Part shown: positions 950 through 52,250 of the stretch, piece after piece
Numbering within the stretch: the first letter of the stretch is position 1
Layout: the number at the start of each line of letters is the position of its first letter
Assembly (NCBI GenBank): GCA_963718855.1
Contig: CAVRAA010000013.1
Span: 230,074 to 294,073 of the forward strand
Length of the DNA stretch: 64,000 bases
DNA from: an uncultured Nitrospiraceae bacterium
Lineage (GTDB): Bacteria > Nitrospirota > Thermodesulfovibrionia > Thermodesulfovibrionales > SM23-35
Direction: 5' to 3'
Notes under the pieces: generated by a model
Databases searched by the model: none
Told to the model about the DNA's origin: nothing
What the model saw: the letters and a program-made list of their open reading frames with translations, nothing else
Made by a program: the position numbers and the translations under genes

Positions 950-1800
950 CTAATAGAATTCTTTCAGAGTCGTCTCTAATTTCGATTTCTCGAATGTCTG
1001 TTTCACCAGCGGGGCATTTTTAATCACGGGAATTCTTTCCTCCAACACAGGGCGGTTATTTTTATAAATGATCCCGAGGGGAATGCGGTCTCCCCATTCA
1101 AGCGCCCTGTTGAAGGCCTCGATTCTGTCATCAGGATCATATTCAGGTTCCATGTGATAGGCCCGCTGTTTATACCATTCATAGGTATTAATCTTATTGA
1201 AGGTCACACAGGGCTGAAGGATATCGAGAAGCGAAAAACCTTTATGGAGTATTGCGGCTTTCATGAGGTCCTTAAGATGGACCGGATCTCCGGCAAAACC
1301 CCTCGCAACAAAACTGCAGTCAAGGGCGATTGCCAAAGCCATAGGATTCAGTTGTTCAGAAAAAACGCCGAAGGGCTGATTCTTTGCAACCGTTCCTTCC
1401 ACGTTGTAGGAGAAGGCTGCCCTTTTGTGAGTCCGTAGATCTGATTATCATGCACAAACAGTTTAAGTCCGATATTTCTTCTCATCGCATGAATAAGGTG
1501 ATTCCCACCTTCACCGTAGCAGTCGCCGTCTCCTGCAACGGCAATAACAAGCATCTCGTGATTGGCAAGCCTAATGCCTGTGGCCACAGGGAGAGACCTT
1601 CCATGGAGCCCGTTGAAGGTATTGCATTTCAGATAGTGCGGGAATTTGCCGGACTGTCCTATGCCGGACACAATAGTAAACTGATGGGGTTCTATCCCCA
1701 GTTCAACGACGGCATCTTTAAAGGCCTTCAGGATGCCAAAATTCCCGCATCCCGGGCACCATGCAGGCGTTTGTCCTTTATAATCTTCCAATGTAGGCAT
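950..1800 (-). pseudogene. korB: 2-oxoacid:ferredoxin oxidoreductase beta subunit (TPP-binding), one frameshift
   Basis: Two ORFs (1348-1800 and 950-1402) together give a full KorB-like protein (…CPGCGNFGIL…GDGDCYGEGGNH…YGLTKGQPSPTT // GTVAKNQPFGV…LDILQPCVTFNK). The frame change is near 1395-1402. Confidence 0.85.
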
Positions 1801-3495
1801 CTAATTCTCCAAGAAGACCCTCCACGGTGAACGGTCTTCCATCAAATCGATTGATTTTTGCCTGAATTCATACCCTGTCTCTGCTCTCATAAGATGCGCA
1901 AACTGTCCTGTTGCATTGTTTTCGATGCAGAGGCAAATTTTCGCGTTCTTTAATACTGTCAGATAATCGAACCCCTCAATCGACGGAAACGGATAAATCT
2001 CACTGAAATGCAGCATTGCAATGCTTCTGCTTTTTGAAAGGAGTCCACCACCTCTTTCATAACCCCGTATGTGGAGCCCCATCCTACCATTACGATTTCC
2101 GGCTCTCTGTTTCCGTATAACAACGGAGACGCAATCTCTTTTCTTATTAACGGCATTTTTTTCAAAAACCTTTTTTGCACCATCTTTATTCTCGTTTCAG
2201 CATCTTCGATGATATGGCCTTCTTCATCATGCTCATCGCTGTCTGCTACAACTAAATGTTTTGCATCTCCCGGAACCCCAATCGGCGATACGCCGGTATC
2301 GGTAAAGGCATACCGTTTGTATTCTGTGAGATTCCTGAACTCATCACCCCTCAGCCGTAATCGTTCAGAACAATCCTGTTCAGATCGAATTGTTCCGATG
2401 TCCATACGGAATCTGCGAGGTACTGGTCAAAGATAACAAAGGCTGGAATCTGATATTTCTCTGCCATATCAAATGCCTTATTGGTAAGATAAAAGGCCTG
2501 CTCCGGCGTGCCAGGCGCAAAAATAACCCGTGGGAATTCTCCATGCGCTGCATGGAGGGCAAATAACAGATCGCCCTGTTCTGTTCTTGTCGGCAGACCC
2601 GTAGCAGGGGCTGGTCTCTGCCCGAGGCGATCACAATCGGCGTTTCCGTCATCGCTGCCAGAGACAGCCTTCCACCATCAATGCAAAACCTCCTCCTGCT
2701 GTGCCGGTCATTGCCCTCACACCGGCAAACGATGCACCCAAAGCCATATTGATCGCAGCGATTTCGTCTTCTGCCTGCTCTACGATGATGCCGTATTCCT
2801 TTTCTTTCCCGGCGATATAATTCATGATACCTGTTGAGGGTGTCATCGGATATGCTGAATAAAATTTACATCCGGATGCAATGGCCCCAAGCGCAATAGC
2901 TTCAATCCCTGCAATAAGCATTTTGGCGCTGACAGAGAAGAGGGGATAAACGAGCATTGCGGGCAGTTCTTCACTGCGAATTCATGTCCGGCCTGTGCAG
3001 CTTTGATATTCGCATTGATGACCTCATCTCCCTTTTTCTTAAAGGTATCGGTGAGAATTCCGTCAAGGACGTTCAGATCCATTCTCAGCATGCCCAGCAC
3101 CGCGCCCGTAGCTACGGTATTTGCCATAATCTTATTCCCTCCATGCTCCACCGCCAGCTTCTCAAAAGGGATATCGAGGAAATTCTGCTTTTCGTGTTGC
3201 TCCTTCAATGTCGAAGAGTCATAGATTATCAGCCCTCCTTCGAAAGTTCATTCTCATGGAGGGCGATGCTCTCCTTATCAAGGGCGACGATAATATCAAT
3301 TCCGTCCCTGGAAGCCATGATAGGTTTGTCGGAAAAGCGGATCTGGAAAAAATTGTGGCCGCCTCTTATGCGGGATTCATAATCCTGATGGGTGAAGACG
3401 TGATATCCGGACCTCGAAAAAATCCGTGAGAGGGTATCACCAATGGTCTGGATGCCCTGTCCGGCCTCACCGCCTATTTTGATTGAATAGTCCAT
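1801..3495 (-). pseudogene. korA: 2-oxoacid:ferredoxin oxidoreductase alpha subunit (gamma-alpha fused type), at least five frameshifts
   Basis: Conserved KorA sequence is spread over ORFs 3229-3495, 2843-3208, 2649-2957, 2380-2652, 1959-2405 and 1801-2082, plus an untracked frame I translated (QRPAPATGLPTRTEQGDLLFALHAAHGEFPRVIFAPGTPEQAFYL…). Junctions lie near 3230, 2965, 2625, 2405, 2075 and 1850. Confidence 0.85.
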
Positions 3496-3555
3496 GTGAA
3501 CAACCCCCTTAATCCCCCTTTTCTAAGAGGGGAAAGGGGGAATATACTAATAAAT

Positions 3556-4026
3556 TTAACTACACAAAGCTTTTCTTAAATTAGTGAGCCAAACGATATG
3601 GCTTTTCTCTTCCTTGATAATAGAATCGATAATCTCTTTCTCCTTTAATGCTTCCCTCAGCGTGTAATAGTAGAGCAGCGTCTCCCTCTCAAAACAGAGC
3701 GCAAAATCGATAGCCTCTGCCGCAGTCTTCACATGTTCGAGGGAAGGCAGGCACTTGTCCTTGCCGAGGAAGAATTCCGAATCGACAATCGCCTTGAGAT
3801 AGAGGGTGACCTCTTCCCATCCCTCGGGTTCTTCCTCCATCAGTTTAGTTTTGAGAGCGGCAAAGCTCGCGCCATGTTTTGTCTCATGTGATGCGAGCAA
3901 TCCGAAGAGTTTCTTTAATTCATTGTGATCCTGAAACTTCTGTGCCATCTTTGTATAGAATTCATTTCCGAGTTTCTCCGTCTGGATCGCCTGTTCAACT
4001 ACCTCTCTTACCGAAAAACTGACCAT
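3556..4026 (-). CDS. ferritin-like / rubrerythrin-family diiron-domain protein
   Basis: 156 aa, all-helical. Paired E..H-type motifs (…ASHETKHG…, …EEKSHIVWL…) resemble the ferritin-like superfamily. Confidence 0.6.
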   Translation of the reverse strand: MVSFSVREVVEQAIQTEKLGNEFYTKMAQKFQDHNELKKLFGLLASHETKHGASFAALKTKLMEEEPEGWEEVTLYLKAIVDSEFFLGKDKCLPSLEHVKTAAEAIDFALCFERETLLYYYTLREALKEKEIIDSIIKEEKSHIVWLTNLRKALCS

Positions 4027-4061
4027 AATCCCTCCCTCATACGTCTTTCGTTTATTAAAGT

Positions 4062-5489
4062 TTAGATGATATTTTTTATATCGTCAATATGAATAACTTT
4101 TCTGTCGAGGAGGCGGCCCAGAAGAGTGAACCCTCCGCATGGCGAGCGGCTGGTACCTGTTACAAAATCACAGTCATTTTCAAAAAAAGGACACGCCGTA
4201 CAGAGCACCTCTAAAAGCATTCCTTTGGTTCGTTCCTCAAATCCTTTATCCTGCGTATCGAATGAAATCGCCCATCCCTTCCCGATGAGCCTTTCGATGA
4301 CGGTAAAGCCGAGACAGGCAAGTTCCTCATCTTTTGAGGGTTTATAATACGGGCAGAAGTTCCGGCAGAGCTCTTCGCGTATTGTAGTCACATCTAACCT
4401 CGCCTGCGCCTTCATTTTCCAAACTCTATCATCGGAGGGCAGTGCCCCGACGATATGCTCCAGGGAGAGACTGAGTCCGGTCAGCACCTCTCCGATTTCG
4501 TCATGCAGTTCCTGCGCGATGTAACGGCGCTCGGATTCCTGCACTTCCAATAAACGGGCAGAGAGTGCCTGCAGACGTTCCGCATATTGCACCATCGCCT
4601 CTTCGGTCTTCTTGCGCTCGGTGATATCGATAAAGGATGCCTCAATACAAAGAGGGATGCCGTTCGCATCCGAAACCACATTTGCGCTGAACTGGGCATC
4701 GAACGTCGAGCCGTCCTCTCTCCTTCCGACCATTGCCCCCATGCACCAGCCCCTCGCCGACAGATCTTCCATAACCTTGCCTGCTTTTCCCCTGTCCTGC
4801 CAGCAGAACATTATCGGTTTATTCAAAATGTCGCGCTCGGTATCGTATCCCCAAAGCTGAAGAAATGCGTTATTGACATAGGTCAGCGTTCCTTCGAGAT
4901 CTGCAAACGCAATTGCATTGATTGACGATGCGATAGCGATCCCCTTTATCCTCAGATCTTCTTCAATGTGCTTGCGTTCAATGATCTCGCTTTCAAGTTC
5001 ATTGACGACCGCTTCGAGCTGCATGGTTCGATCGACGACACGGCGTTCAAGTTCTTCATTCAGTATCCGGTATTGTTCCTTGCTTTTCCGAAGGGCTATC
5101 TCTGCATCCTTGAGCCGGATCATTGCTTTCACGCGCGCCAGAAGTTCTCTGCCTGAAATCGGGCGGATTAGATATTCATCCGCTCCCAAATCCAGGCCGT
5201 ACACCTTACTCTCAGAGGAAATTTCGACACCGGAGATCAGTATCACATACGTGTTCGCCAGGAGAGGGTCTGCCTTGATCTGTTTACAAACGTCAAATCC
5301 GTTCGTATCGGGAAGGTTTACATCCAGCAGAATTACATCCGGCAGCATTTCCCTTGCCATGCTGATGCATTCGTTACCGGTGCCCGCTTCAATGACTTCA
5401 AGCCCTGAGGATTGAAGAATGCTTGAATTGATATTGAGAAGATCGGGGTCATCGTCTACGACGAGAATTCTTGCTTTCGAGTTCATCAT
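4062..5489 (-). CDS. response-regulator receiver / coiled coil / PAS / HisKA_3 protein with a Cys-rich C-terminus instead of a recognisable ATPase domain
   Basis: REC domain (ILVVDDDPD…DVILLDVNLPDTNGF…K). PAS region (…GTLTYVNNAFLQLWGY…). HisKA_3 H-box (ERRYIAQELHDEIGEVLTGL). The last 101 residues have 7 Cys and no N/G1/G2 boxes that I can see. Confidence 0.7.
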   Translation of the reverse strand: MMNSKARILVVDDDPDLLNINSSILQSSGLEVIEAGTGNECISMAREMLPDVILLDVNLPDTNGFDVCKQIKADPLLANTYVILISGVEISSESKVYGLDLGADEYLIRPISGRELLARVKAMIRLKDAEIALRKSKEQYRILNEELERRVVDRTMQLEAVVNELESEIIERKHIEEDLRIKGIAIASSINAIAFADLEGTLTYVNNAFLQLWGYDTERDILNKPIMFCWQDRGKAGKVMEDLSARGWCMGAMVGRREDGSTFDAQFSANVVSDANGIPLCIEASFIDITERKKTEEAMVQYAERLQALSARLLEVQESERRYIAQELHDEIGEVLTGLSLSLEHIVGALPSDDRVWKMKAQARLDVTTIREELCRNFCPYYKPSKDEELACLGFTVIERLIGKGWAISFDTQDKGFEERTKGMLLEVLCTACPFFENDCDFVTGTSRSPCGGFTLLGRLLDRKVIHIDDIKNII

Positions 5490-5599
5490 AGAATCTCCGT
5501 TTTTCGAGACCGGCGTCGTTCAGCGCCTTCCTTAGGTTGTGTCACATATTATCAGAAAAGGTCTCTTTTTATCCTTTAGTAAAAACACTTATATTTTAT

Positions 5600-5617
5600 A
5601 TCAGTAGTTCTACTGAT
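5600..5617. promoter_or_regulatory. 18-bp perfect palindrome ATCAGTAGTTCTACTGAT in a divergent intergenic region
   Basis: Lies between the divergently transcribed sensor gene (start 5489) and the rSAM gene (start 5687). Candidate operator with no known motif assignment. Confidence 0.3.
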
Positions 5618-5686
5618 AATCAGCAAAAGCACCGTCCTGCGGTTCGGCGTTGGGACGCTCGTCTTTTTTTTGTTGTATCATAGGGC

Positions 5687-6820
5687 ATGAGGTATTTTCT
5701 TTCTCACGATGCCGTGCTTAAATGGCTTGAAACACCTTCTGTTTACCATATTGCACGGGATGACCTCTATGAACTCGATCAAGAATCCTTTACGCTGCTC
5801 AGAAAGTGTGCCTCTCAAACCGGGGGTACGATTAGCGATCATGATTTCCTGGATTATTGCCTGAGGGAAGGCATCCTTATAACTGACACGGCTTCAGCAA
5901 AGCACCCTCCCCTGACAGAATCTCCTGTTCCCTCGCTCCGGTATCTTGAGCTTCAGATCACAGATCGCTGCAATCTCAGGTGTAAACACTGCTTTATTGA
6001 GGAAGGTTCCTCGGAGCTTTCAATACATCACATAAGGGATATCCTGCAGGAATTCGAGAAAATGCAGGGGTTAAGGGTTCTCATCACCGGCGGGGAACCC
6101 CTTCTTCACAGCAGGTTGAGGGAACTATGCGACATGCTTCCTGATTTTTCCGTCCGGAAGATCCTCCTTACGAACGGCATTCTCCTCAGCAGTACCATAC
6201 TGAAAACCCTTAGCGTTCATGAAATTCAGATAAGCATCGACGGCCTGGAAAGAGCCCATGATTCCCTCAGGGGCAAAGGCGCCTACAAATCCGCGATCAG
6301 GGGATTGCACGCTGCCCTTGATGCCGGATTCGAGGTATCTGTCTCTACCATGATTCATCCCGGCAATCTCGGAGATTTCGATGCAATGGAGAAATTATTC
6401 AAGACCATAAAAATAAAGGACTGGACTGTCGACATCCCCTGTGTTGCCGGGCGTTTGAAGCAGAACGATGCATTTCAGATAAGCCCGGAGAGCGGGGGCA
6501 ACTTTCTCCGGTACGGTTTTGGAGGAGGAATGCATGCCGGTTCAGCAGGGTATGCGTGCGGTTCTCATCTCATGGCGGTAACGGCGGACGGCAGAGCCGC
6601 CAAATGCACCTTCTTTTCCGAAAATCCCGTTGGAAGGATTGATGAAGGACTGAGAACCTGCTGGCAGAGGATCAGGCACGTCAGACTCGATGAGCTGAAA
6701 TGCGACTGCAGCTCTATCGAATCCTGCAGAGGCGGATGCAGATACCGGGCTCTGCTGTTCGGCGATCAACTGGGCAGGGATTTTTACCGTTGCCATTCGT
6801 ATGATATAATGGAAAAGTGA
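5687..6820 (+). CDS. radical SAM/SPASM-domain enzyme with a PqqD/RRE-like N-terminal domain (peptide maturase-like)
   Basis: CNLRCKHC CxxxCxxC motif. C-terminal Cys cluster (…AKCTFF…CDCSSIESCRGGCRYRA) typical of SPASM. The N-terminal ~85 aa resemble a winged-helix RRE. Confidence 0.75.
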   Translation: MRYFLSHDAVLKWLETPSVYHIARDDLYELDQESFTLLRKCASQTGGTISDHDFLDYCLREGILITDTASAKHPPLTESPVPSLRYLELQITDRCNLRCKHCFIEEGSSELSIHHIRDILQEFEKMQGLRVLITGGEPLLHSRLRELCDMLPDFSVRKILLTNGILLSSTILKTLSVHEIQISIDGLERAHDSLRGKGAYKSAIRGLHAALDAGFEVSVSTMIHPGNLGDFDAMEKLFKTIKIKDWTVDIPCVAGRLKQNDAFQISPESGGNFLRYGFGGGMHAGSAGYACGSHLMAVTADGRAAKCTFFSENPVGRIDEGLRTCWQRIRHVRLDELKCDCSSIESCRGGCRYRALLFGDQLGRDFYRCHSYDIMEK

Positions 6821-6867
6821 AGATCGGGTATGAAGCCCGGGTTCCTCTACGAAAGGGGGTGTCTGTC

Positions 6868-6930
6868 ATGAAGATAAAAAAGGTGCTGAAAAGAGTCTCA
6901 TTGACGTGCAAGTGCAAAAGTTCCTGCTGA
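6868..6930 (+). CDS. unannotated 20-codon ORF MKIKKVLKRVSLTCKCKSSC (candidate precursor peptide)
   Basis: AAGGGGG lies 8 nt upstream of the ATG. The ORF starts 47 nt after the rSAM stop and lies before the terminator at 6964-6998. Three Cys in the last seven residues. Such a short ORF could occur by chance. Confidence 0.3.
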   Translation: MKIKKVLKRVSLTCKCKSSC

Positions 6931-6963
6931 TAACGCGGGAGGATTGCATGCAATAACGCAGCA

Positions 6964-6998
6964 GAAAAAAAGGCTGGTTTAAAACCCAGCCTTTTTTC
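6964..6998. terminator. bidirectional Rho-independent terminator
   Basis: AAAAAAAGGCTGG-TTTAAAAC-CCAGCCTTTTTT: a GC stem flanked by an A-run and a T-run, between convergent genes. Confidence 0.75.
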
Positions 6999-7007
6999 AT
7001 AATACTT

Positions 7008-7193
7008 TTATTCCATGGTTATGGCCTGCACAGGACATGTATCCGCAGCTTCCTGGCAATTGCAGGTACTGCATTTGTCAGGGCCTATGACATGGGCTTT
7101 TCCATCGTCTTCAACCTTAAAAACCTCCGGACACATTTCTTCACACGTGCCGCACCCTTCACATGCATCCATATCAACTACTGGTTTTGCCAT
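7008..7193 (-). CDS. small 4Fe-4S ferredoxin
   Basis: 61 aa with CEGCGTCEEMCP and CSTCNCQEAADTCP cluster motifs. Confidence 0.85.
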   Translation of the reverse strand: MAKPVVDMDACEGCGTCEEMCPEVFKVEDDGKAHVIGPDKCSTCNCQEAADTCPVQAITME

Positions 7194-7288
7194 ACTCTTT
7201 CCTCCTTACTGTTGAAAAGTTTGATGAACCTTCATCTCTATCCAAAATTGCCATAGAGAGAAGTGCGCTCTCATTCCCAATGAAAACG

Positions 7289-7543
7289 TTACGTCCTGAT
7301 CTCAAAATTCTTAATAAACTGTCCTACCTGAACACCAAGATACACGCATTTTACATTCTCCATGCAATCGTCTGCGTCCTTCTTTTCGAGGTGCGTGGTG
7401 AGTTCCTTATTGTCTCTCCTGAACTTGACGACATAGGCGTTCTTTGCTTCATCAAACTCGAGAGTTACAACAATGCCGTTTTTTGAAATCTCGGGATACA
7501 TTTCAAGTATCTTGTCCTGTAAAGCAACCTTTGTATAACCCAT
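7289..7543 (-). CDS. conserved-looking small hypothetical protein (84 aa)
   Basis: Clean ORF co-oriented with the ferredoxin. No family recognised. Confidence 0.45.
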   Translation of the reverse strand: MGYTKVALQDKILEMYPEISKNGIVVTLEFDEAKNAYVVKFRRDNKELTTHLEKKDADDCMENVKCVYLGVQVGQFIKNFEIRT

Positions 7544-7696
7544 ATATCCTCCTTTTTCAGATCACGTCAGATGATGGCGTTGCGTTTATGCCTATATACG
7601 CAGGCTATCACCTCAGCAATCCGCCGGGGCGGAAAGCCTGCGGCTACATTGCTCTGTTCCCTTGCCCTAAGCCCGTTGCCGTTAATCCCCGTGGGT

Positions 7697-8182
7697 TCAG
7701 CCCTCGACGATGCTATGCTCGTCCCACATAAACCAGTTGCCGGTATCGGACATAAAAGAATACGTATTGGCAAAGACATCGTAATGCTGCTGCTCTTCCT
7801 TGACGAGCCTCATGAAGAGGGCCCTCTCTTTTTCCGTCGGTGCCTCTGCTTCCGCCTTCTTGTAAAACTCCACCCCCTCTTTTTCCATCTGCATCGCTAT
7901 CCGGAATGCGTCGATTTCATCCTTTGTTGCCGCAACCTGTTGCATCATGGCGTCTTTCATCGTCTTAAAAATTGTCTGTATGTTCCCCATCGGGCTCACA
8001 TTTTCGGGAGTAATGCCGATGTCTTTGAAGATTGCCGACAGCATCTTGAGATGTCTCTTTTCATCTTCTGTGATACTCAAAAACATCTTTTTCCCAACAG
8101 GATGCTTCGTTTTTCCGGCCGCCTCCGTGTAAAAATCGATTGCATCTTTTTCCATTTTTATCGCCACTTCAATAGCGTTCAT
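7697..8182 (-). CDS. ferritin-like / rubrerythrin-family diiron-domain protein
   Basis: 161 aa. Duplicated helix pairs with E…ExxH motifs (MEKDAIDFY…EDEKRHL; MEKEGVEFY…EEQQHY). Confidence 0.7.
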   Translation of the reverse strand: MNAIEVAIKMEKDAIDFYTEAAGKTKHPVGKKMFLSITEDEKRHLKMLSAIFKDIGITPENVSPMGNIQTIFKTMKDAMMQQVAATKDEIDAFRIAMQMEKEGVEFYKKAEAEAPTEKERALFMRLVKEEQQHYDVFANTYSFMSDTGNWFMWDEHSIVEG

Positions 8183-8269
8183 GTAATCCTCCGTACATCA
8201 GTATTCTTTTTATCAGTTTAATATTTTTAAGAAAGATAATCAATCGCCGGCATCAAATCAATCCCATTC

Positions 8270-8895
8270 TCATTCAAATCTCACAAATTCTTCAATCTCC
8301 CTCCGGAATGCTCGCGGGAGAAGGGTAATACCCGTCTTTAATTTTCCGACAGCAATAAGCATCGGGATAATTTTATCATCCGGTATGGCAAATTCCTTTT
8401 TTATGCATTCTTCGTCAAATCCGTCCATCGGGTGCGTTTCAAGACCAAGGCCCTTGGCAGCAAGCATCAGGTTCATCGCAAAAAGCGCCGGTATTCTTCG
8501 GCTGCAAAGACTTTCCGCCTGAGGCTCTCTTTGGTACCGTAGAGGTCTTTGGCCATGCCGATATAGGTATCCCTCATTTCCGGAGCAATAAAGCCCAGTT
8601 CCTGCCAGCTGTCGAGTACCCGGTCAAGATTTTCTTCCACTCCATTCGGGTCTGCGATCATAATGAAAACTGCTGATGCCTCTTCTACTTTCGGTTGATT
8701 AAACGCGCATCTCCGCAAAACCTTCTTCCTTTCGTTATCTCTCACTACGATAAGCCTCCATGGCTGGAGATTAAACGAGGAAGGGGACAGATTTGCAATC
8801 CGGATAATCTCCTGCAACGTATCAACAGAAAGCGAAACCCCTGCTTCAAAAAAATTGATGGAACGCCGTTCCCGTATCGCCTGTATCACATCCAT
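8270..8895 (-). pseudogene. nitroreductase-family protein, one frameshift
   Basis: 8473-8895 (…RRSINFF…SPSSFNLQPWRLIVV…) and 8270-8476 (MNLMLAAKGLGLETHPMDGFD…) together make one nitroreductase fold. The frame change is near 8480-8500. Confidence 0.8.
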
Positions 8896-8985
8896 GGGGC
8901 TACTCCTTTTGACGATTTGCTGTCCGAAGCCTATAGGGCTCTTATTTTTTCTAAGAAAAACATACGTAAGATATCATTATTGAAA

Positions 8986-9060
8986 AATCTCCCCTAACCC
9001 CTCTTTATTAAAGAGGAGACATTATTCCTCCCTTTGGCAAAGGGAGGTTAGGAGGGATTT
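8986..9060. repeat. Repeat family B copy 2
   Basis: Aligns with 652-728. Confidence 0.85.
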
Positions 9061-9158
9061 TATAATTAATGTTTTTATCCTTATGACCTTATTGTTAAGT
9101 ATTGCATGTTTTGAAATATTGTCAAGATAGTTATAATTGGGTTAAGGAATATAACACC

Positions 9159-10138
9159 ATGAAATTTCCCTCGTTTATACAATTGTATCCGACATTACGC
9201 TGCAATCAGAGGTGCGGGTTCTGTTTTAATCAAAACATATCAACTCCTTATAGAGACATGCATGAAAAAGACGCATACATGCTCTCCTCGATGCTGGGAG
9301 AACACGGATGTTCCGAAATAGACATCCTTGGCGGGGAGCCTATGCTTGTGCCATGGATGTCAGATTTTGTGAATCATGTCACAGATTCGGGAACTATGGT
9401 GAACATAAGTACAAACGGAAGCCTTCCTCATGTCGTTGACCAACTGTCAAGAAACAACACAGGATTGCTCAATATCGGATTCTCCATCCACGGGCTTCCC
9501 GAAGCACATCAGTGCCTCACGGCTGCCGATAACTTCTCAACTGCCATCACAGGGATTCAGAAAATGATGGAAAAAGGGAAAGACCCTCTTGTAAAGAGCA
9601 CCTTGACGCGCGCCAACACGAATGAAATCCGCCCTTTGGTGAAGTACCTCAGGGACCTTGGAATAAAACGCTATTACCTTCTGTATGAAGATAGTATCGG
9701 CAGGACTGATCTCTCATCGGTTCTTTCGTATCCGGAATTCATGCGTTTTTATACCGCCGTTCAGAATGATATTAAGCCATTTCATATCGGGTTTGTAGCA
9801 GCGTCCGGGTTCTATAAATATGGGAGGGAAGCACCCGGCAGATGCGACGCAGGCATCGAAAAAATAGCGGTGATGCCGGACGGTTCTGTTTTTCCCGTGC
9901 AATCTCTTTGCAGGCTTTAAAGAATTCCGGCTTGGAAATATATTTCTTGATAGCATCGAAAAAATCTGGAACAATCCCATTCTGAAGCCATTTCGTACAT
10001 CCTTATAAAAATGCATGCAGGAGAGATGACTGCAGCCATTCTGCCAACTGCAGCGGCGGATGTCCTGCCCACAGTTACTTCTTCTATGGCACCATCGATG
10101 CAGCTGACCCCAGGTGTGGCGTCAATAACCCTATTTGA
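9159..10138 (+). pseudogene. second radical SAM/SPASM-domain protein, two frameshifts in the SPASM region
   Basis: MKFPSFIQLYPTLRCNQRCGFCFN rSAM motif. After about 9900 the conserved sequence continues in other frames (FPCNLFAGFKEFRLGNIFLDSIEKIWNNPILKPF… then …CSHSANCSGGCPAHSYFF…DPRCGVNNPI stop at 10136-10138). The likely true start is ATG 9159, not the tracked TTG at 9102. Confidence 0.75.
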
Positions 10139-10208
10139 CAAGAATATTTCTAATATAATAATATTTACTAAATAATAATTACTACTGAATTCAAAAGAAA
10201 GGAGAGTC

Positions 10209-10349
10209 ATGATGGCAACAAAAAAGGGACAGAAGTATAAATGCAATATCTGCGGGAATGAAGTAGTGGTAACTCATGAAGGAAAGGGTGAGCTTGTCTG
10301 CTGCGGACAGCCGATGGCAGCTGTAGGAGAAGGATTTACGTGCAAATAA
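10209..10349 (+). CDS. desulforedoxin-like small Fe(Cys)4 protein (46 aa), absent from the ORF track
   Basis: [46 protein letters not shown]. The Y-K-C-x-x-C-G…L-V-C-C-G pattern matches desulforedoxin as I recall it. GGAGAG SD 3 nt upstream of the ATG. Confidence 0.75.
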
Positions 10350-10351
10350 TC

Positions 10352-10394
10352 ATACCCCTTTTTACCCCTTATCAAGGCGGGCAAAAAGGGGTAT
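10352..10394 (+). promoter_or_regulatory. 12-bp inverted repeat hairpin (ATACCCCTTTTT…AAAAAGGGGTAT) between the desulforedoxin and flavodiiron genes
   Basis: Perfect 12-bp arms with a 19-nt loop. Could be a partial terminator, an RNA stability element or a family B-related half repeat. Confidence 0.4.
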
Positions 10395-10438
10395 ACTTTT
10401 GGTAGCAAAAAATTCTTCTCTAAAAACAGGGAGGCTCA

Positions 10439-11656
10439 ATGAAAGCTGTTGAAATAAAACCTGACATTTATTGGGTAGGCGCCATCGACTGGGCCATCAG
10501 GGATTTTCATGGGTATGTCGTTCCGAACGGGACAACATATAACAACTACCTTATTCTCGACGATATGGTAACGCTGTTCGATACGGTAAAACACGATTTT
10601 TCCCATATCACCGTTGAGAATATCAAGAGCCTGGTGGACCCCGCAAAAATCCGGAACATAATTATTAATCATATCGAGAACGACCATTCAACGAGCATTG
10701 CGGAAATCATGCATCTCGCACCGAATGCCACAATCTACATCACTGAGAGAGGGAAAAAGGGTCTCGATAAATTCTACGATCTTTCCAGGTGGGACATAAA
10801 AACTGTAAAAACAGGTGATACCCTGAATATCGGCAAAAGGAATCTGCTTTTTATAGAGACCCCAATGCTCCACTGGCCTGATTCGATGATGACGTATGTA
10901 AAGGAAGACAAACTCCTCATCAGCCAGGATGCCTTCGGCCAGCATTATGCGTCGGCTGCGCGTTTTGACGACGAATTTCTCACCTGTTTTTCCGTATCCG
11001 AACTTGAGAATGCGGTGGAAGACTACTATGCGAATATTCTGATGCCATTCGGCACGCTGATCAAAACAAAAATCGCGGAGATTCAGAAATTGGGGCTTGA
11101 AATCGACATGATCGCACCCGATCACGGCATCATATGGAGAAAAGACCCTGCAAAGGTCATCAATATGTACCTTGATATGGCAAACGGAAAAGCCGATCTC
11201 AGGGTCGTCATTATCTATGATACGATGTGGAAAAGCACGGAGCAGATGACCGTCCCTATCATGCAGGGCATTAAGGATGAAGGGGTGGATGTACAGATCA
11301 TAAAACTGAGGGCAACCCCTATAAGCGCTGCAGTCAAAGAATTCTGGCAGGCACGGGGGTGTCTCATCGGCTCTCCTACATTGAATAATTCAATGTTCCC
11401 CACTATTGCAGGATTTTTATCGTATCTGAAGGGCCTCAGGCCCAAAAACCGCATTGCCGGCGCCTTCGGCAGTTATGGATGGGGAGGCGGCGCTGTCAAG
11501 GACATGTACGAAGAATTGAAGAAGATGGGGATTGAGATCGTGGAACCCGGAGTACAGGTCATCTATAAACCGACGGCTGATGAGGAGCAACGTTGCTACG
11601 AGTTCGGAAGGGAGTTTGCTGGCAAAGTAAAGGCATACCATGCAAAGTTCGAATAA
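10439..11656 (+). CDS. fprA: flavodiiron protein (rubredoxin:oxygen/NO oxidoreductase type)
   Basis: 405 aa. N-terminal metallo-beta-lactamase-like domain (…IINHIENDHSTS…) plus a C-terminal flavodoxin-like domain (VVIIYDTMWKSTE…GSPTLNN…). Confidence 0.85.
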   Translation: MKAVEIKPDIYWVGAIDWAIRDFHGYVVPNGTTYNNYLILDDMVTLFDTVKHDFSHITVENIKSLVDPAKIRNIIINHIENDHSTSIAEIMHLAPNATIYITERGKKGLDKFYDLSRWDIKTVKTGDTLNIGKRNLLFIETPMLHWPDSMMTYVKEDKLLISQDAFGQHYASAARFDDEFLTCFSVSELENAVEDYYANILMPFGTLIKTKIAEIQKLGLEIDMIAPDHGIIWRKDPAKVINMYLDMANGKADLRVVIIYDTMWKSTEQMTVPIMQGIKDEGVDVQIIKLRATPISAAVKEFWQARGCLIGSPTLNNSMFPTIAGFLSYLKGLRPKNRIAGAFGSYGWGGGAVKDMYEELKKMGIEIVEPGVQVIYKPTADEEQRCYEFGREFAGKVKAYHAKFE

Positions 11657-11679
11657 AAGGTTGAAACAGTGGGGTCGCG

Positions 11680-12349
11680 ATGACTGTTGAGACAGTTCTT
11701 CTTATCCTCGAATCGGTACTGCTTGCTGCTACGATCATCCTCCTTTTATACAGCATTAAGGAAGGCAGAGGACGGAGAAATATGTTATTGGAGGTCGGGA
11801 AAGTTACGCGGATGCTCACCCGGCAGGAATACTTTCAGAATGTCACCGATACGATGATGGATGCAAAAGATGAAGTGGCCGGTATTATTACCGGAAGACT
11901 GCCGGCTGAGGATGATAAGAAAAGAATTAAAGATATAGCGAATAATATTGAGAGGGTGACCAAAAGTCGGGGTGAGGGTGAGGTATCTCATACCGAAGTT
12001 CCACGACAGGCTTCATGTCGGATATCACTACACCAAAGCCGGCGCCGAGGTACGCTATAGCATCTGTGCCGTTGCAAATAACATCCGGTATATTGTCGTC
12101 GACGACAAGGTGGCCGTGATCGGTATCCCCGAAAGCATCGGCGAGAAAGCTGCGACGAGAAAGGGGTACAGAATTCCCTCTGAAGGTCTCGCTGCAATAC
12201 TGAAAGACCATTTTTCCCGATGCTGGGAAGAAAGTATGCCGTACGAGGAATATATAAAAGAGGTAATCAGGCAAACAGGAGCGACAGCCAAACTGCTCGA
12301 AAAAGAGCTGCAGATAGACGAGAGAGAGTTGAAGAAGTATATCGCGTAA
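11680..12349 (+). pseudogene. membrane-anchored hypothetical protein, one frameshift
   Basis: 11680-12060 (N-terminal TM helix) and 11972-12349 read as one protein if one frame change is made near 11975-12000. No family assigned. Confidence 0.5.
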
Positions 12350-12385
12350 AGGACCACACTAATAAAACGTTAACTGGAGGAAATT

Positions 12386-12881
12386 ATGGCAAAAACAGAA
12401 CAGGATCTTCAGGACGCCTTTGCAGGCGAATCACAGGCAAACAGAAAGTATCTCGCCTTCGCAAAAAAGGCGGATGCCGAAGGCTTACAGACAGGTCGCA
12501 AAACTCTTCAGGGCTGCTGCCGAGGCAGAGACAGTCCATGCGCTGAACCATTTGAAGGAACTCGGCGCGATCAAATCCACAAAGGAAAACCTTGAGGCGG
12601 CGATCGGAGGCGAAACGTATGAGTTTCAGAAAATGTATCCCCAGATGATTCTGGATGCAGAACAAGAGGGGAAAAAAGGCGCCCGGAGAAGTTTCGATCT
12701 CGCCAATGAAGTCGAAAAAATTCATGCAGCCCTTTACAAAAAGGCCCTCGAAACACTTGGCAAAAATGGAGAGGTCGATTATTATGTCTGTGAGGTCTGC
12801 GGGAATACGGTCGAAGGAGAACCGCCCGACAAATGCCCGATCTGCGGGGCCTTGAAAAAGATGTTTAAGAAGGTTGAATAA
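12386..12881 (+). pseudogene. rbr: rubrerythrin, one frameshift
   Basis: MAKTEQDLQDAFAGESQANRKYLAFAKKADAEG, then a shift near 12478-12482 (an extra T by my reading), then YRQVAKLFRAAAEAETVHA…. The C-terminus has a rubredoxin-like CEVCG…CPICG. Confidence 0.85.
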
Positions 12882-12886
12882 TTCGC

Positions 12887-14417
12887 ATGAGACAGCGAAA
12901 ATATATGGCGTTTTTATGTCTTATCCTGTTCATCTTTTCTTACAGCATGCTTTCTGCTTCTGAAACCGAGCCGGAGAAAAGGATCCCGGCGACAATGGAC
13001 TGATCAGCCCGGCCACAAAAACGTGCCTCGCATGCCACGAACGGGTCACCCCCGGAATCGTAGCAGACTGGCGCACGAGCAGACATTCGAGGGTGGCTCC
13101 TGCGGAGAGCCACAAAAAAACCATTTTTGGAAAAACGGGTATCTGCTGAAAATATTCCAGCGGAATTACAGGGGCACGTTGTCGGCTGTTATGAATGTCA
13201 TTCGCTGAATGCCGGAAATCACAGCGATAATTTTGAACATATGGGGCAGAGGATCAATGTAGTCGTCTCCCCTAATGACTGCAAGACCTGTCATCCCGTG
13301 GAAGTGCAGCAGTTTTCGGGCAGCAAAAAATACTATGCGCATAAAATTCTCATTGAAAATCCTGTTTATTCTCTCCTCGTGGATACCATCACCGGGATAA
13401 AGAAGATGGAAGGAACGCAGTTTGTTACCGCCAGACCCTCTGATGCGACCCTGCTATGAAACCTGTCTCGGTTGTCACGGAACACGGGTGGAGGTGAAGG
13501 GAACAAAGAATATAGCAACAAAAATGGGCTCTTTTGCATTCCCGAACCTCACGAACTGGCCGAACCAGGGAGTGGGAAGAATAAACCCTGATGGCAGCCT
13601 CGGCGCCTGCTCCGCATGCCATACGAGGCATGGGTTTCTCATCGAAGTAGCGAGAAAACCCTATACCTGCAGCCAGTGCCATCACGAACCGGATGTCCCT
13701 GCGTGGAATGTCTACGAAGAAAGCAAACACGGCAATATTTATTCATCCAAAGGCCTATAGCTGGGATTTTACAAGCGTACCGTGGAAGATCGGGCAGGAC
13801 TTTAAAGCGCCGACCTGCGCCTCTTGTCACAATAGCCTCATCGTATCGTCTGACAATGAAGTAATTGCAGAGCGGTCGCACAATTTCGGTTCCCGTTTAT
13901 GGGCAAGGCTCTTCGGCCTCATATATGCCCATCCCCAGCCGAAATCAGGGGATACGACGATCATCAAAAACAAGGACGGCCTGCCGCTGCCGGTAACATT
14001 CACCGGAGAAAACGCCTCAGAGTACCTTATTGATGAATCAGAGCAGGGGAAAAGATTGAACACGATGAGCAGTGTCTGCAATGGGCTGTCACAGTTCACA
14101 ATGGATAGCGGGTCATTTCGCAAAACTCGATATCTACGATAAAAGAGACGAACGATATGACACTCACTGCTACAAAGCTCATGGTGAATGCGTGGGAGAA
14201 AGGGATTGAGAATAGAGCAAATCCGTTTGATGAGACCATTGAATTGATGTGGATCAGGCAATGGCTTTTCTATGCGAACTCTGTCAGGTATGCCTCTGCG
14301 ATGACAGGCGCACCCGACTACACGAGCTTCAAAAACGGCTGGTGGGATCTGAGTGAAAATCTGCAGCACATGAAGGACTGGAGTGCACTCAAAAACAGCG
14401 GAAAAGAGAAACACTGA
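12887..14417 (+). pseudogene. octaheme c-type cytochrome of the hydroxylamine-oxidoreductase (HAO) family, at least five frameshifts
   Basis: Signal peptide MRQRKYMAFLCLILF…. Eight CxxCH motifs are recovered across frames: CLACH, CYECH, CKTCH, CLGCH, CSACH, CSQCH, CASCH, CNGCH. The motif PDVPAWNVYEESKHG is HAO-like. Pieces lie in ORFs 13127-13459, 13422-13760, 13693-14142 and 14157-14417. Confidence 0.75.
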
Positions 14418-15890: not shown

Positions 15891-16775
15891 CTACGCCCTC
15901 GGATGGTGTTTCGCATATACCTGCTTCATCCGGTCCGTTGTCACCTTGGTATAAATCTGCGTTGTGGAAATATCGGAGTGCCCGAGCATCTTTTGCAGTG
16001 ACCGGAGATCCGCGCCCCCTTCAAGCAGATGCGTTGCGAATGAATGCCGCATGGTATGCGGCGAAATCTTCAGCCCGATTTTTTGGCCGAACGTCTTGAT
16101 CGTCTGCCAGAAGCGCTGCCTTGTCATAGGCTCTCCTCTTCTGGTTACAAAAAGATAGGGGGAAGCCCTGTTTTTTAAAATGTGGCCCCGCTGTTGATTG
16201 ATATACCTCTGCAAGCGTTCCAAGGCACGTATATGCACAGGCACGATCCTCTCCTTGGCCCCTTTCCCTAAAACACGCAGGAAACCTGCATCAAAATGGA
16301 CATCCTCCAGTTTGAGCAGTACAAGCTCGCTGACACGCAAACCCGAAGAATAGAGAAGTTCCAACATCACCGAGTTTCTCATGATGAGCGGGTCAGCATT
16401 CTCTGTTATTGCGCTTTCTTCGAGCAGCAACGTAATTTCGGCAATGCTGAGCGACTTCGGAAGCCTCTCCCATCTTTTCGGCGTCTGGAGGTTCTCCGAA
16501 GGGTCCACTTTGATCTTTTTTTCGATGATGAGATATTTGCACAGACCTTTTATCGATGATATCGCCCTGCAGATGCTCGGGACCGAATATCCGCTGTCCC
16601 GGAGAGATTCGATATAATCGATAATATCCGCCCTCGAAAAGGAGATGAGATCTTTTTTCTTTGACGAAAGAAAAGACTGGAATTTCCTGAGATCGAATTG
16701 ATACGACTCAATGGTATTCCTCGACAGCCCCTTCTCTGCGGCAAGATAGGCAAGAAAATGTCTAAGATGCTCCAA
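15891..16775 (-). CDS. xerD: site-specific tyrosine recombinase XerD/XerC family
   Basis: 294 aa. N-terminal SAM-like domain (…LSRNTIESYQFDLRKF…). C-terminal catalytic residues (…HTMRHSFATHLLEGGADLRSLQKMLGHSDISTTQIYT). Confidence 0.8.
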   Translation of the reverse strand: MEHLRHFLAYLAAEKGLSRNTIESYQFDLRKFQSFLSSKKKDLISFSRADIIDYIESLRDSGYSVPSICRAISSIKGLCKYLIIEKKIKVDPSENLQTPKRWERLPKSLSIAEITLLLEESAITENADPLIMRNSVMLELLYSSGLRVSELVLLKLEDVHFDAGFLRVLGKGAKERIVPVHIRALERLQRYINQQRGHILKNRASPYLFVTRRGEPMTRQRFWQTIKTFGQKIGLKISPHTMRHSFATHLLEGGADLRSLQKMLGHSDISTTQIYTKVTTDRMKQVYAKHHPRA

Positions 16776-16784
16776 CCGGTCCTC

Positions 16785-17567
16785 CTACAACGTATAAATC
16801 GCTTTCATCTCATCTGTATAACTGCAGTCTTCGTTGTAGATATACAATGGCTTTTCAACCTTCAACCCGCTTCTTCCCCCCTTTACTGCTTCGATGAGTA
16901 CCATTTTAGCCTCTGTTGCAGGAGAGGAATGAACAAACCGCAGCCTCTTGGGTTCCATTTCCCTCTTTTTCAAGGAGACAATAAGTTCAGCGAGCCTGCT
17001 CGGGTGATGAATGAGGCAGAACCTTCCTCTGATATTTAGCAATGCCGCAGCAGCATCGGCAAGTTCATCAAGCTTGAGCATTATTTCATGCCGCGCGATG
17101 GCCTTTTCTTCTTCAACATTGAGAAGACCGCTTTTGCACCGCCTGAATGGTGGATTCGAAACGACAAGATCAAATCGGGGCGGAGATGAGAGCAAGTCAC
17201 GGTTTCTCAAATCAAACTTCACTGCCTTCACTCGGTCATCCATGCAATTCAAGGCCGTATTTTTCTCTGCGAGGCTGACAAGACTTTCCTGAAGCTCGAA
17301 AAGGGTGGCCTGTGAGTGGGGATATTTTTTTGCGAGCAATATTCCGACAATGCCCGAGCCCGCACCAAGGTCGGCAATATTCCGAACGGTTTTAAGGACC
17401 ACAAACTCAAACAGCAGTAAGGCATCGACTGAAAAACGATATCCCTTTGCCGGCTGGTATAACTGTATATCACGGATACTGTCAAGCGTGACATCCACAT
17501 CACTACCACTTGGGCCGGCGGAAGTGTGCGCTAAACTACAGGACACCTTTGTCTTCAAGCATAGCAA
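16785..17567 (-). CDS. class I SAM-dependent N6-adenine methyltransferase (tRNA m6A37 TrmN6/YfiC-like)
   Basis: DLGAGSGIVGILLA SAM motif and the NPPF catalytic motif (VVSNPPFR). The start is uncertain because the ORF overlaps the upstream gene. Confidence 0.6.
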   Translation of the reverse strand: MLCLKTKVSCSLAHTSAGPSGSDVDVTLDSIRDIQLYQPAKGYRFSVDALLLFEFVVLKTVRNIADLGAGSGIVGILLAKKYPHSQATLFELQESLVSLAEKNTALNCMDDRVKAVKFDLRNRDLLSSPPRFDLVVSNPPFRRCKSGLLNVEEEKAIARHEIMLKLDELADAAAALLNIRGRFCLIHHPSRLAELIVSLKKREMEPKRLRFVHSSPATEAKMVLIEAVKGGRSGLKVEKPLYIYNEDCSYTDEMKAIYTL

Positions 17568-18990
17568 TAAATATCTTAACGATGTGAGGATCGAACTGTG
17601 TGCCGGAGAATTTTTTCAGTTCCTTCACCGCTTCTGCCACCGAGAGCGCTTTTCTGTAAGGTCGGTCGGTCGTCATCGCGCCGAAGGCATCTGCAACGCC
17701 GATAATCCTTGCACCGAGCGGGATATTTTCTCCTTTCAGTCCCTCAGGATACCCTGAACCGTCGAAACATTCCTGATGGTACCTTATTATCTCCTTCGCA
17801 TACTTGAGTGGTTCGACAGGTTCAATAAGCTTTGCGCCGACCTCGGGATGTTTTTTAATGATATCTATCTCTGCATCGGACAGTTTGTCCGGCTTCATGA
17901 GAATATGATCAGGAATACATATCTTTCCCAAATCGTGCAGAAGAGCAGCTTTCCTGATGTTTTCGATCTCACGGTCGGGAAGTCTCAATTTCTGCGCGAT
18001 TTCGACCGAGTATTCTGCAATGTCTTTCATATGTTTGTCAGTATACAGATCCCTCGCCTCGACGACGGCAGACAGTGTTACTATCATGGAAAGGTACGAC
18101 TGCTCCAGTTTTTCATAGAGACGGGCATTTTCTATCGCAGCCGCAGCCTGACCGCACAGGACCGAGAGCAGTTCCATGTCAGACTGTGTGAAGAGATGAT
18201 CACTGCTTACCCGACAGATGCAGAGGAGTCCTATTGCACGCCCTCTCGTCAGGAATGGCATACAAATGCCCGACGATATTTCCTCTCTCTGTCTCATCTC
18301 ATCAATACCGGAGGGTAGTTCATTGCCGGCTGTCATGAGATAAGGGGTGTTTCCTTTCAGGGTGAGCGCAGTCAGGTTCTCACTGTAGTGTTCGCTGAAG
18401 TCTTTATCAAAATGAGATGAAAGGCCATGACATACCTTCAGTTCCAGCTTCGCCGATTCTTCATCCATGAAAGCGAGCCATGCTTTATCGGCGCCCGCCT
18501 CCTGCACTGCGATATCGATGATCAACCTGACCAACCGCTTCGTATCGATTTCGCTGATGATTTCTTTGCTCACCTCAAAGAGCGGCATTAAGGCGCGCAT
18601 CCTTATGTTTTCATTCAGGAGCCTCGTCTTTTCGAGGGCCTCGGCAACCGCGGATCTGAGTTCCTCCGGCGTAAAAGGCTTCAGGAGAAACCCCTGTGCG
18701 CCCAGCCTCATGGCATTAATAGCCGTATCGAGCGTGCCATGGCCGGTAATGATGATAATCGGCATCTCTGTATTACGGGCTCTGACATGCCTGATGACAT
18801 CCAGCCCGCTTATATCAGGCATGCGGATGTCGGTGAGGAGAAGGTCGAACTTTTCCGTATCTAACAATTCCAATCCCTTGTTGCCGTCAGAGACTGTTTT
18901 TATTTCATGGTCCGCCCTTGTCAGGATATCCTTCGCAAGATCAAGGATGAATTCTTCATCATCGATTACAAGTATTTTTTCTTTTTGCAC
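17536..18990 (-). CDS. response regulator with GAF and HD-GYP (c-di-GMP phosphodiesterase) domains
   Basis: REC (ILVIDDEEF…LLLTDIRMPDISG). A central GAF-like region. HD-GYP (…LLHDLGKICIP…HHQECFDGSGYPEGL…). The start was set to GTG 18990 (GGAGGAG SD) because the tracked ATG at 19125 lies inside the atp terminator hairpin. Confidence 0.8.
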   Translation of the reverse strand: MQKEKILVIDDEEFILDLAKDILTRADHEIKTVSDGNKGLELLDTEKFDLLLTDIRMPDISGLDVIRHVRARNTEMPIIIITGHGTLDTAINAMRLGAQGFLLKPFTPEELRSAVAEALEKTRLLNENIRMRALMPLFEVSKEIISEIDTKRLVRLIIDIAVQEAGADKAWLAFMDEESAKLELKVCHGLSSHFDKDFSEHYSENLTALTLKGNTPYLMTAGNELPSGIDEMRQREEISSGICMPFLTRGRAIGLLCICRVSSDHLFTQSDMELLSVLCGQAAAAIENARLYEKLEQSYLSMIVTLSAVVEARDLYTDKHMKDIAEYSVEIAQKLRLPDREIENIRKAALLHDLGKICIPDHILMKPDKLSDAEIDIIKKHPEVGAKLIEPVEPLKYAKEIIRYHQECFDGSGYPEGLKGENIPLGARIIGVADAFGAMTTDRPYRKALSVAEAVKELKKFSGTQFDPHIVKIFIAMLEDKGVL

Positions 18991-19100
18991 CCGCCGTTTC
19001 TCCTCCCCTAAAACACCTTTATTATACCTTTTTGAAAACAGAATGTTAACCTTGCAGGGCGAACGCCCCTGTTTGAATTTTTCAGGCGGTGATGGAAAAT

Positions 19101-19134
19101 AAAAAAAAGGCCATGCTGAAAGCATGGCCTTTTA
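19101..19134 (-). terminator. Rho-independent terminator of the atp operon
   Basis: AAGGCCATGCT-GAA-AGCATGGCCTT stem-loop followed, on the minus strand, by a T-run (plus-strand AAAAAAAA at 19101-19108). Confidence 0.75.
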
Positions 19135-19154
19135 ACTGTTATAGAAAAATTGAG

Positions 19155-19562
19155 CTATTTTCTTTCTGCTACCTGCACTCTTGCAACTGCCCTTTCAAGG
19201 GACGACGACGACCGGGCGAAATCAAACTCTTCGATCTTTTTGAGTCTTTCTTCAGCCCTTTTCATTGCCGTCTTTGCCCTCTCTATATCTATGTCTTCTG
19301 ATTTTTCCGCACTGTCGGCAAGAATCATGACCCTCTCAGGACCGACCTCTGCGTATCCCCAGTTTACGAAGACATATTTCGTCGCATTCCCTTTTTTATA
19401 TGCGAGCATGCCAACCTTTAAGGTTGTAAAGAAAGGCACGTGACCGGGAAGCACGCCGAAATCACCTTCGCTTCCGGTGCATGACACTTCGTCAACGTCC
19501 TCGCTTAAAATAAGGCCATACGGGGTAACGATTTCCAGCTTTAATTTATTTTCTTTCTCCAT
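19155..19562 (-). CDS. atpC: F1 ATP synthase epsilon subunit
   Basis: 135 aa. LKLEIVTPYG…VPFFTTLK… with typical AtpC layout, at the last position in the operon. Confidence 0.9.
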   Translation of the reverse strand: MEKENKLKLEIVTPYGLILSEDVDEVSCTGSEGDFGVLPGHVPFFTTLKVGMLAYKKGNATKYVFVNWGYAEVGPERVMILADSAEKSEDIDIERAKTAMKRAEERLKKIEEFDFARSSSSLERAVARVQVAERK

Positions 19563-19599
19563 TAGTACCTCTCCTGCCTTAGCCCTTTATTCTTTATAT

Positions 19600-21027
<1,428 letters not shown>

Positions 21028-24553: not shown

Positions 24554-24625
24554 ATTGAAAATGACGATGAAGACCAGATACTGCGACTATCTTCTTCCAT
24601 GTTGAATTTCTGTTTTTCATTTTTC

Positions 24626-45180: not shown

Positions 45181-45213
45181 GACAAAATCCGTAGAGAAAG
45201 ATAATCATTGTAA

Positions 45214-52135: not shown

Positions 52136-52176
52136 AGTTATAAAAGGCTTCATATTAATGACAACATTATTTATAG

Positions 52177-52250
52177 AATCCCTCCTAACCTCCCTTTGCC
52201 AAAGGGAGGATTTATTCCCCTCTTTGGCAAAGAGGGGCAAGGGGAGATTT
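52177..52250. repeat. Repeat family B copy 3 (inverted orientation)
   Basis: Reverse complement aligns with 652-728 and 8986-9060. Confidence 0.85.

Follow-up and report, generated by a model that had tools for sequence, protein, structure and literature searches.

Conserved bacterial genes that seem broken by shifts of the reading frame are known from several settings. In programmed frameshifting (+1 in prfB, -1 in dnaX, and in insertion sequence (IS) transposases) and in the slippage of endosymbionts, a functional product needs a change of frame, and pseudogenes in the decaying genomes of host-restricted bacteria may carry multiple frameshifts per gene. Here we describe a 64,000-nucleotide stretch of contig CAVRAA010000013.1 from an uncultured Nitrospiraceae bacterium (the whole stretch is called the window), in the first 14.4 kb of which eight genes are cut by single-base insertions and deletions (indels) and stand beside intact neighbours. 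Among the broken genes are korA and korB (together korAB), which encode a 2-oxoacid:acceptor oxidoreductase. We conclude that these frameshifts very probably arose while the assembly consensus was built and are not mutations of the organism. As their specific trigger we favour, with distinctly less confidence, single-nucleotide polymorphism (SNP) sites in a mixture of strains.

The locus resembles decaying pseudogenes in its multiple frameshifts per gene and in the deletion bias of korAB, but here the genes had no stops and no larger internal deletions, selection on them was not relaxed, and the breaks were not shared by descent. Unlike programmed frameshifting or slippage, it had many sites per gene and no conserved site, slippery heptamer or long A/T run. 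Two kinds of assembly error come closer. Residual indels in long-read assemblies (the IDEEL-type problem; Sereika et al., 2022, PMC9262707) also split conserved genes into fragments that translate well, with an indel load that varies with coverage; here, too, the load varied by assembly, and there was none in short-read contigs. While the classic errors of this kind lie in homopolymers, about a third of the events here touched a run, no more than by chance, and they were sorted into deletion-only and insertion-only patches. Part of the Strainberry paper reports that Flye collapses strains about 98.65% identical into consensus contigs and that long-read assembly indels break open reading frames (ORFs) (PMC8302730). 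The present case is similar in that sister samples contained several conspecific relatives with mosaic divergence, and the insertions resembled two SNP alleles in series; collapse and indel frameshifts are described in that part of the paper, while the doubling of alleles at SNPs is our own proposal.

Frame-changing indels in the first 14.4 kb

We aligned the window with orthologues from ten Nitrospirota/Thermodesulfovibrionia genome-database loci, using a custom frameshift-permitting protein-to-DNA aligner, and with close relatives at the base level, which fixed each indel and identified the odd sequence out. The protein-to-DNA aligner puts frameshifts at codon boundaries only, and the events at 8489, 8499 and 24572 were positioned in this way. 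The relatives were reached through a search with the stitched korA (91% identical protein match). They are L011 (ENA ERZ25039462 contig_37590), L012 and L013 (both ERZ25039461) and L016 (ERZ25039459), all syntenic with window positions 1-14.2 kb at a DNA identity of 88-98%. A further relative, L014 (ERZ27247845 k141_233734), is a short-read contig about 90% identical to the window that spans 22.9-40.2 kb.

Between 1.4 and 14.1 kb, the two sets of alignments placed 21 single-base indels that change the frame, spread over eight genes and each private to the window. For four insertions (11967, 12485, 14086 and 14132) the site was covered by L011 alone, and their private status comes from L011 and the orthologue alignments. 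The genes and events are as follows:

950-1800, minus strand: korB, beta subunit of the 2-oxoacid:acceptor oxidoreductase; one 1-nt deletion, between 1402 and 1403 (alignment to the L001 orthologue)
1784-3495, minus strand: korA, alpha subunit; seven 1-nt deletions, after 1862, 2042, 2356, 2627, 2667, 2924 and 3243
3556-4026, minus strand: rubrerythrin/ferritin-like gene; 1-nt deletion after 3577
3578-8488, no strand: event-free 4.9 kb with a sensor (4062-5489), a radical SAM gene (rSAM1, 5687-6820), a ferredoxin, an 84-residue gene (7292-7543) and a ferritin-like gene (7697-8182)
8273-8895, minus strand: nitroreductase; two +1 insertions 10 nt apart, at 8499 and 8489
9156-10129, plus strand: second radical SAM/SPASM gene (rSAM2); +1 at 9889, in the T-run 9887-9891, and +1 at 10001
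10439-11656, plus strand: flavodiiron protein; intact in the window
11680-12358, plus strand: membrane protein; +1 at 11967, AG[T]C
12386-12881, plus strand: rubrerythrin; +1 at 12485, GGC[T]
12890-14417, plus strand: HAO/hydrazine-dehydrogenase-like multihaem cytochrome; 1-nt deletion after 12978 and +1 at 13108, 13456, 13757, 14086 and 14132

In the ORF map, the broken genes appeared as short overlapping ORFs in mixed frames at 950-3520 (minus strand), 8270-8970, 9100-10270 and 11665-14414, with long single ORFs between these zones. Pfam assigned the fragments to one family per gene, namely PFO_beta_C and TPP_enzyme_C for korB, POR and POR_N for korA, and nitroreductase, radical SAM and rubrerythrin for the remaining fragments. 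Once the frames were corrected, the orthologue alignments gave well-conserved proteins with zero in-frame stops, so that the earlier observation of well-conserved translation without extra stops in the broken genes holds after correction. Small indels relative to the relatives were also found in non-coding DNA, at 569, 664, 9143, 10364 and 12355; the one at 10364 is common to L016 and may be natural variation.

The first-pass annotation, made from the sequence alone, had described about 17 frame changes in seven genes. These events were real, and each of the 18 junctions it listed matches a single-base indel within about 50 nt, but the full count is 21 in eight genes; the deletions at 2667 and 3577 and the second nitroreductase insertion had been overlooked in the first 14 kb. 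Its counts for korB (one), rSAM2 (two), the membrane protein (one) and rubrerythrin (one) stand, nitroreductase has two events rather than one, and the 'at least five' given for both korA and the HAO-like gene became seven and six. It had also taken the interleaved genes to be intact. That is true of the sensor, rSAM1, the ferredoxin, the flavodiiron gene and the ferritin-like gene at 7697-8182, and fails for the rubrerythrin-like gene at 3556-4026, which is broken at 3577.

Private breaks over conserved coding sequence

Comparison with orthologous loci in related genomes, a check that had been suggested earlier, found the frames whole in close relatives at every comparable site. At the deletions of the kor patch, the normal base was present in L011, L013 and L012 at nine of nine sites and in L016 at eight. 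The insertions were absent from each relative covering the site (L011, L013, L012, L016 or L014), and a four-way alignment contained no window-private 1-nt indel in 3578-8488, where the window is 98.1% identical to L011.

The individual genes bear this out. The base missing from korB at 1402 is present in L011, L013, L012 and L016, and the corrected protein matched the NCBIfam model TIGR02177 over its full length with 363.5 bits (cutoff 261.9). Each korA deletion site has its base in every aligning relative, and corrected korA was full length on TIGR03710 with 683.8 bits (cutoff 482.75). The base lost at 3577 is the last of a Leu codon (TTG in L011, L013 and L016, TTA in L012), and its loss rewrites the last five residues of the protein, from LKKSFV before the stop in the relatives to LRKALCS before the stop in the window. 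In the nitroreductase, alignment with the L005 orthologue showed that the conserved residues KNT lie between the two insertions; relative to L012 and L016 the window has one G too many at 8499, and at 8489 it reads GGCG where L016 reads GGC. Both rSAM2 insertions are private to the window relative to L011 and L013, which carry other indels of their own in that gene. The family match of the HAO-like gene was weak (72 bits against a cutoff of 900).

Beneath the breaks the coding sequence looked like that of working genes. The ratio of nonsynonymous to synonymous substitution rates (dN/dS) relative to L011 was 0.04-0.33 in the broken genes and 0.04-0.35 in their intact neighbours, with differences mostly at third codon positions; it was 0.154 for korA, which contained no stops, and 0.037 for rubrerythrin. 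The window-private substitutions in korAB numbered 18, 5 and 68 at codon positions 1, 2 and 3. Eight neutral indels in korAB would be expected to come with many substitutions spread evenly over the codon, and this was not the pattern seen, which argues against pseudogenes. The first-pass annotation had reasoned that old pseudogenes should also show substitutions; the argument is sound and the dN/dS results agree with it.

The sister assemblies had frameshifts of their own, in other sets of genes. In L011 the broken genes were korB and rSAM2; in L012, the sensor and korB; in L016, rSAM1, the sensor, korA and korB. L013 had intact korAB and breaks in rSAM1, the ferritin gene, rSAM2, the flavodiiron gene (eight private 1-nt deletions), rubrerythrin and the HAO-like gene. 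Two more ENA contigs held korA fragments, cut at different positions. One SNP-dense spot of korB was hit twice: the window lacks a base at 1402, and L016, an independent ENA contig, has an extra one there (residue 134 of its korB). A census of korAB frameshifts gave zero in five short-read-style contigs, 1, 1, 0 and 6 in four ENA contigs named 'contig_N', and 8 in the window. With method assigned from contig names, indel frequency appears to follow assembly method and not phylogeny.

A contig of the same strain was found outside the broken region. Through an exact-protein match to AtpC we reached L015, a Logan contig from run ERR11561443, which was independently assembled and is 99.86% identical to window positions 16442-19935 over 3494 nt, with no gaps. 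Exact-protein look-ups for the same strain with rSAM1, the flavodiiron protein, Isf, the ferritin-like protein, the Dfx_N peptide and the sensor returned no record, and such look-ups of intact window genes found no independent same-strain assembly over the broken genes. In JGI metagenomes, a scan for the sequence around 3243, with the missing base either restored or left out, hit just two contigs; each is about 89% identical and carries the base.

Altogether, the indels are private to the window, the sequence beneath them is under purifying selection, and the sister assemblies break in different places through private frameshifts of their own, which together point to an artefact of assembly or consensus building, one of the options raised in the first-pass annotation. 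Judged from these comparisons of sequence, we expect the organism itself to have intact, working versions of korAB and of the nitroreductase, rSAM, membrane-protein, rubrerythrin and HAO-like genes.

Divergence from L011 was mosaic, with 92.5% identity over 950-4044 (korAB and the rubrerythrin-like gene) and 98.1% over the next 4.2 kb (4045-8275), and in korAB L011 and L013 were 98.4% identical to each other. The window's korAB is probably a distinct allele gained by recombination.

Mixed strains as a probable trigger, and rival explanations

The insertions carried a signature. In 13 of 14 cases across the window, the extra base was a synonymous alternative of the flanking third-position base, compared with a proportion of 0.40-0.43 when insertions were placed at random into the corrected genes (p about 1e-4), and the count was 10 of 11 when the aligner-positioned events at 8489, 8499 and 24572 were dropped. 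Examples of the pairs are GCC+G, ACC+G, AGT+C, GGC+T, GAG+A, CTT/CTA, GGG+C, GGT+C, AAA+G and TCT+C. At 11967 a Ser codon remains whether the T or the C is dropped. At three sites the relatives carry one or both of the paired alleles: the window has CT[A]T at 13456, and the same single site is T in L011 and A in L013; L016 has GGC at 8489 and L014 has TCC at 34444. The GCG allele at 8489 is suggested by the Ala residue conserved in orthologues.

The events were not concentrated in runs of identical bases, unlike the classic length miscalls of Nanopore, 454 and Ion Torrent sequencing. Five of the 14 insertions touched an identical base (chance about 0.44), and two of the nine deletions at 1402-3577 lay in a run of at least two, at odds with the earlier impression that the indels sit at homopolymers of 2-3 nt. 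The longest tract at any shift site was T5 (9887-9891) and most sites had no repeat, unlike the long tracts of phase-variable genes.

We suggest that the contig most likely derives from noisy long reads of a metagenome, assembled in such a way that several strains (about 91-98% identical) merged into a single sequence. At a pile-up of reads from two alleles, a SNP would sometimes be represented as an insertion plus a deletion; a consensus that kept both alleles would gain a base, and one that kept neither would lose a base. Segments in which the strains are near-identical or well covered would come out clean, leaving broken genes beside intact ones. Because most SNPs between strains under selection are synonymous, doubled alleles would appear as synonymous pairs. 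Strain heterogeneity had been listed among the options in the first-pass annotation, and it gains support as the likely trigger from the presence of at least four relatives (91-98% identical) in sister samples and from the two-allele appearance of 13 of the 14 insertions.

Events were unevenly distributed between regions. There were 22 events in 14.1 kb (1.56 per kb) compared with 3 in the 15.3 kb checked base by base against L014 (0.20 per kb; p = 3.6e-5). The kor patch (1402-3577) has nine deletions, and thirteen further events, eleven of them insertions, fall at 8489-14132. The 4.9 kb from 3577 to 8489 without an event is the only statistically unusual gap (p = 0.002 under 22 uniformly placed events); the 1.6-kb gap at the flavodiiron gene is as expected at this event rate, and the dispersion index was 1.25 (1-kb bins). 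The claim that frameshifts are confined to particular genes is thus right about the unevenness and overstated otherwise, as the patches cross adjacent genes and non-coding indels lie alongside. Direction was also sorted, with nine deletions and no insertions below 4 kb and two deletions and 14 insertions beyond (Fisher p = 2.7e-5, runs test p = 0.002). The private indels of L013 were direction-clustered as well (runs test p = 0.015), which points to a property of the method. Within patches, spacing was more even than random (coefficient of variation (CV) 0.45, p = 0.014 for 1402-3577; CV 0.56, p = 0.076 for 11967-14132), and many of the intervals between events measured 257-348 nt.

Three simple rules for this distribution were tried and rejected. 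A fixed-window consensus artefact, sought through periodic spacing, gave a best period of 308 nt with p = 0.135 after the period scan. A strand rule, with deletions on the minus and insertions on the plus strand, fails on the minus-strand nitroreductase and atpF, which carry insertions. Local divergence as the driver did no better, as a model proportional to mismatches fits no better than a uniform one.

Several points weigh against an artefact at mixed-strain SNP sites. We infer the artefact and do not see it directly, and the long-read origin of the window and its ENA relatives is read from 'contig_N' names and the error pattern. Deletions favour the SNP-site model weakly (four of ten at polymorphic sites, background 0.11-0.13, p = 0.037), and their codon positions were unremarkable. 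The insertions of L013 itself lack the synonymous-pair signature (4 of 9). Indel density in the window did not track how far the sequence diverges from L011 (rho 0.28, p = 0.17); the flavodiiron gene shows 42 differences from L011 without a single indel. Deletion-only and insertion-only patches with even spacing are not predicted by a mixture of strains. Finally, real mutation in bacteria is typically biased towards deletions as well.

Ordinary residual long-read errors in low-coverage stretches, with few reads or no short-read polishing and no mixing of strains, would explain some of these points, and we regard them as a possible, though unlikely, sole cause. A deletion-only kor patch would suit a deletion-biased read technology, and such errors would sit well with the lack of a link between indel density and divergence from L011. 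Events would be patchy and private to one assembly, as observed, and sister contigs would differ widely in error load, as they do, given that this load depends on coverage (PMC9262707). Other points speak against such errors: random read errors are not expected to produce 13 synonymous pairs in 14 (p about 1e-4), a long insertion-only region is odd under a deletion-biased technology, and neither insertions (5 of 14) nor deletions (2 of 9) were enriched in homopolymers.

Very recent inactivation of korAB and the oxidative-stress genes in this strain, put forward in the first-pass annotation, is very unlikely. The indels are present in the sequence as given, the genes hit are functionally related (redox and oxygen stress) and lie in a strain-variable region, in which L011 and L013 lack the nitroreductase block, and all eight korAB events are deletions, matching the deletion bias of bacteria. 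Real pseudogenes, however, would have had to take eight hits in korAB with no stop codon and only five window-private second-position changes, and to keep a dN/dS equal to that of intact neighbours. They would share none of their events with relatives 91-98% identical and would require independent, different inactivations in each relative, including korA in several contigs, while short-read contigs have none; nor is there a mutational rationale for the synonymous-pair signature.

We consider a polishing artefact limited to multi-copy paralogue families (kor, rbr, hao, nitroreductase and rSAM) highly improbable. Such families are often multi-copy, and the window holds two rSAM and several rubrerythrin-like genes. 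Yet the two rSAM genes are only 24-26% identical in amino acids, too divergent to attract each other's reads, and self-comparison within the window revealed no nucleotide-level paralogue of the broken genes, so this option from the first-pass annotation finds no support within the window. In addition, one of the genes in the patches, that of the membrane protein, has no paralogue in the window, indels occur in non-coding DNA as well, the other rubrerythrin-like genes and rSAM1 are clean, and sister assemblies break other genes, such as the flavodiiron gene and rSAM1 in L013. We give similarly little credence to a rapid, parallel and strain-private inactivation of korAB and oxygen-stress genes by real indels at polymorphic sites, or to a correction of such indels that is as yet undescribed; if true, each strain would have a different broken set while its coding sequence still looked selected. 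Programmed recoding, whether by ribosomal frameshifting, slippage during transcription or RNA editing, can be dismissed as a means of restoring the frames, for although conserved, stop-free fragments would yield a functional corrected product, the sites are not conserved in any 91-98% identical relative, orthologues read through in one frame, a search of the junctions for a common or slippery motif or long homopolymers found none, and no bacterial gene with seven recoding events is known.

With a consensus artefact as the preferred explanation, the pattern is real and non-random and yet describes the assembly rather than the organism. Taken at face value, it would lead to korAB, rubrerythrin, nitroreductase, a radical SAM enzyme and a multihaem cytochrome being miscalled as pseudogenes. 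Such calls would wrongly imply that this Nitrospirota lineage has lost a central 2-oxoacid oxidoreductase and its defence against oxygen stress, and would depress estimates of genome completeness. In practice, the broken genes are best treated as intact until reads show otherwise. For curators of long-read metagenomes, an inserted synonymous alternative of a third-position neighbour may flag a collapsed-strain error, in a check that needs no reads.

The rest of the window

Comparison with L014 revealed three single-base events in the 15.3 kb of 22.9-40.2 kb that was aligned base by base, all +1:

24020-24629, minus strand: atpF (ATP synthase B subunit); +1 at 24572, from frameshift-aware alignment to the intact L014 orthologue
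30516-32478, plus strand: aconitase; +1 at 31379 (AAA[G] or an A-run), with the Pfam domain split over two ORFs, from base-level alignment to L014
34298-35264, plus strand: DUF3187 gene; +1 at 34444 (TC[T]C), where the L014 codon is TCC

The insertion at 24572 cuts off about 20 N-terminal codons of atpF and forms a synonymous pair, GGT[C]. The atp genes are therefore not free of frameshifts as had been stated, and atpF joins aconitase, DUF3187 and an IS remnant, which had been given as the sole cases beyond 14 kb. Pfam likewise shows aconitase and the DUF3187 gene as split and the IS as broken, and the genes of the type II secretion system (T2SS) appear unbroken, as described, with whole Pfam domains in their ORFs.

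The IS remnant (43843-45325, plus strand) consists of DUF4277 and DDE_Tnp_1 pieces whose frames run 1 to 3 to 2, equivalent to two -1 shifts. A multi-copy IS collapsed during assembly could give the same consensus error.

The window also contains a repeat of about 100 nt with internal inverted repeats, at 627-732, 8961-9086 and 52150-52262 (minus strand). Its core, CCTCCCTTTGGCAAAGGGAGGTTAGGAGGGATTT, occurs three times in the window, compared with zero expected. Two of the copies lie in strain-variable DNA, one in 606-937, a 332-nt insertion that L011 lacks, and the other in the nitroreductase block 8276-9075, which is missing from L011 and L013. From its structure, the repeat may be a mobile element resembling a miniature inverted-repeat transposable element (MITE) or a repetitive extragenic palindromic (REP) sequence.

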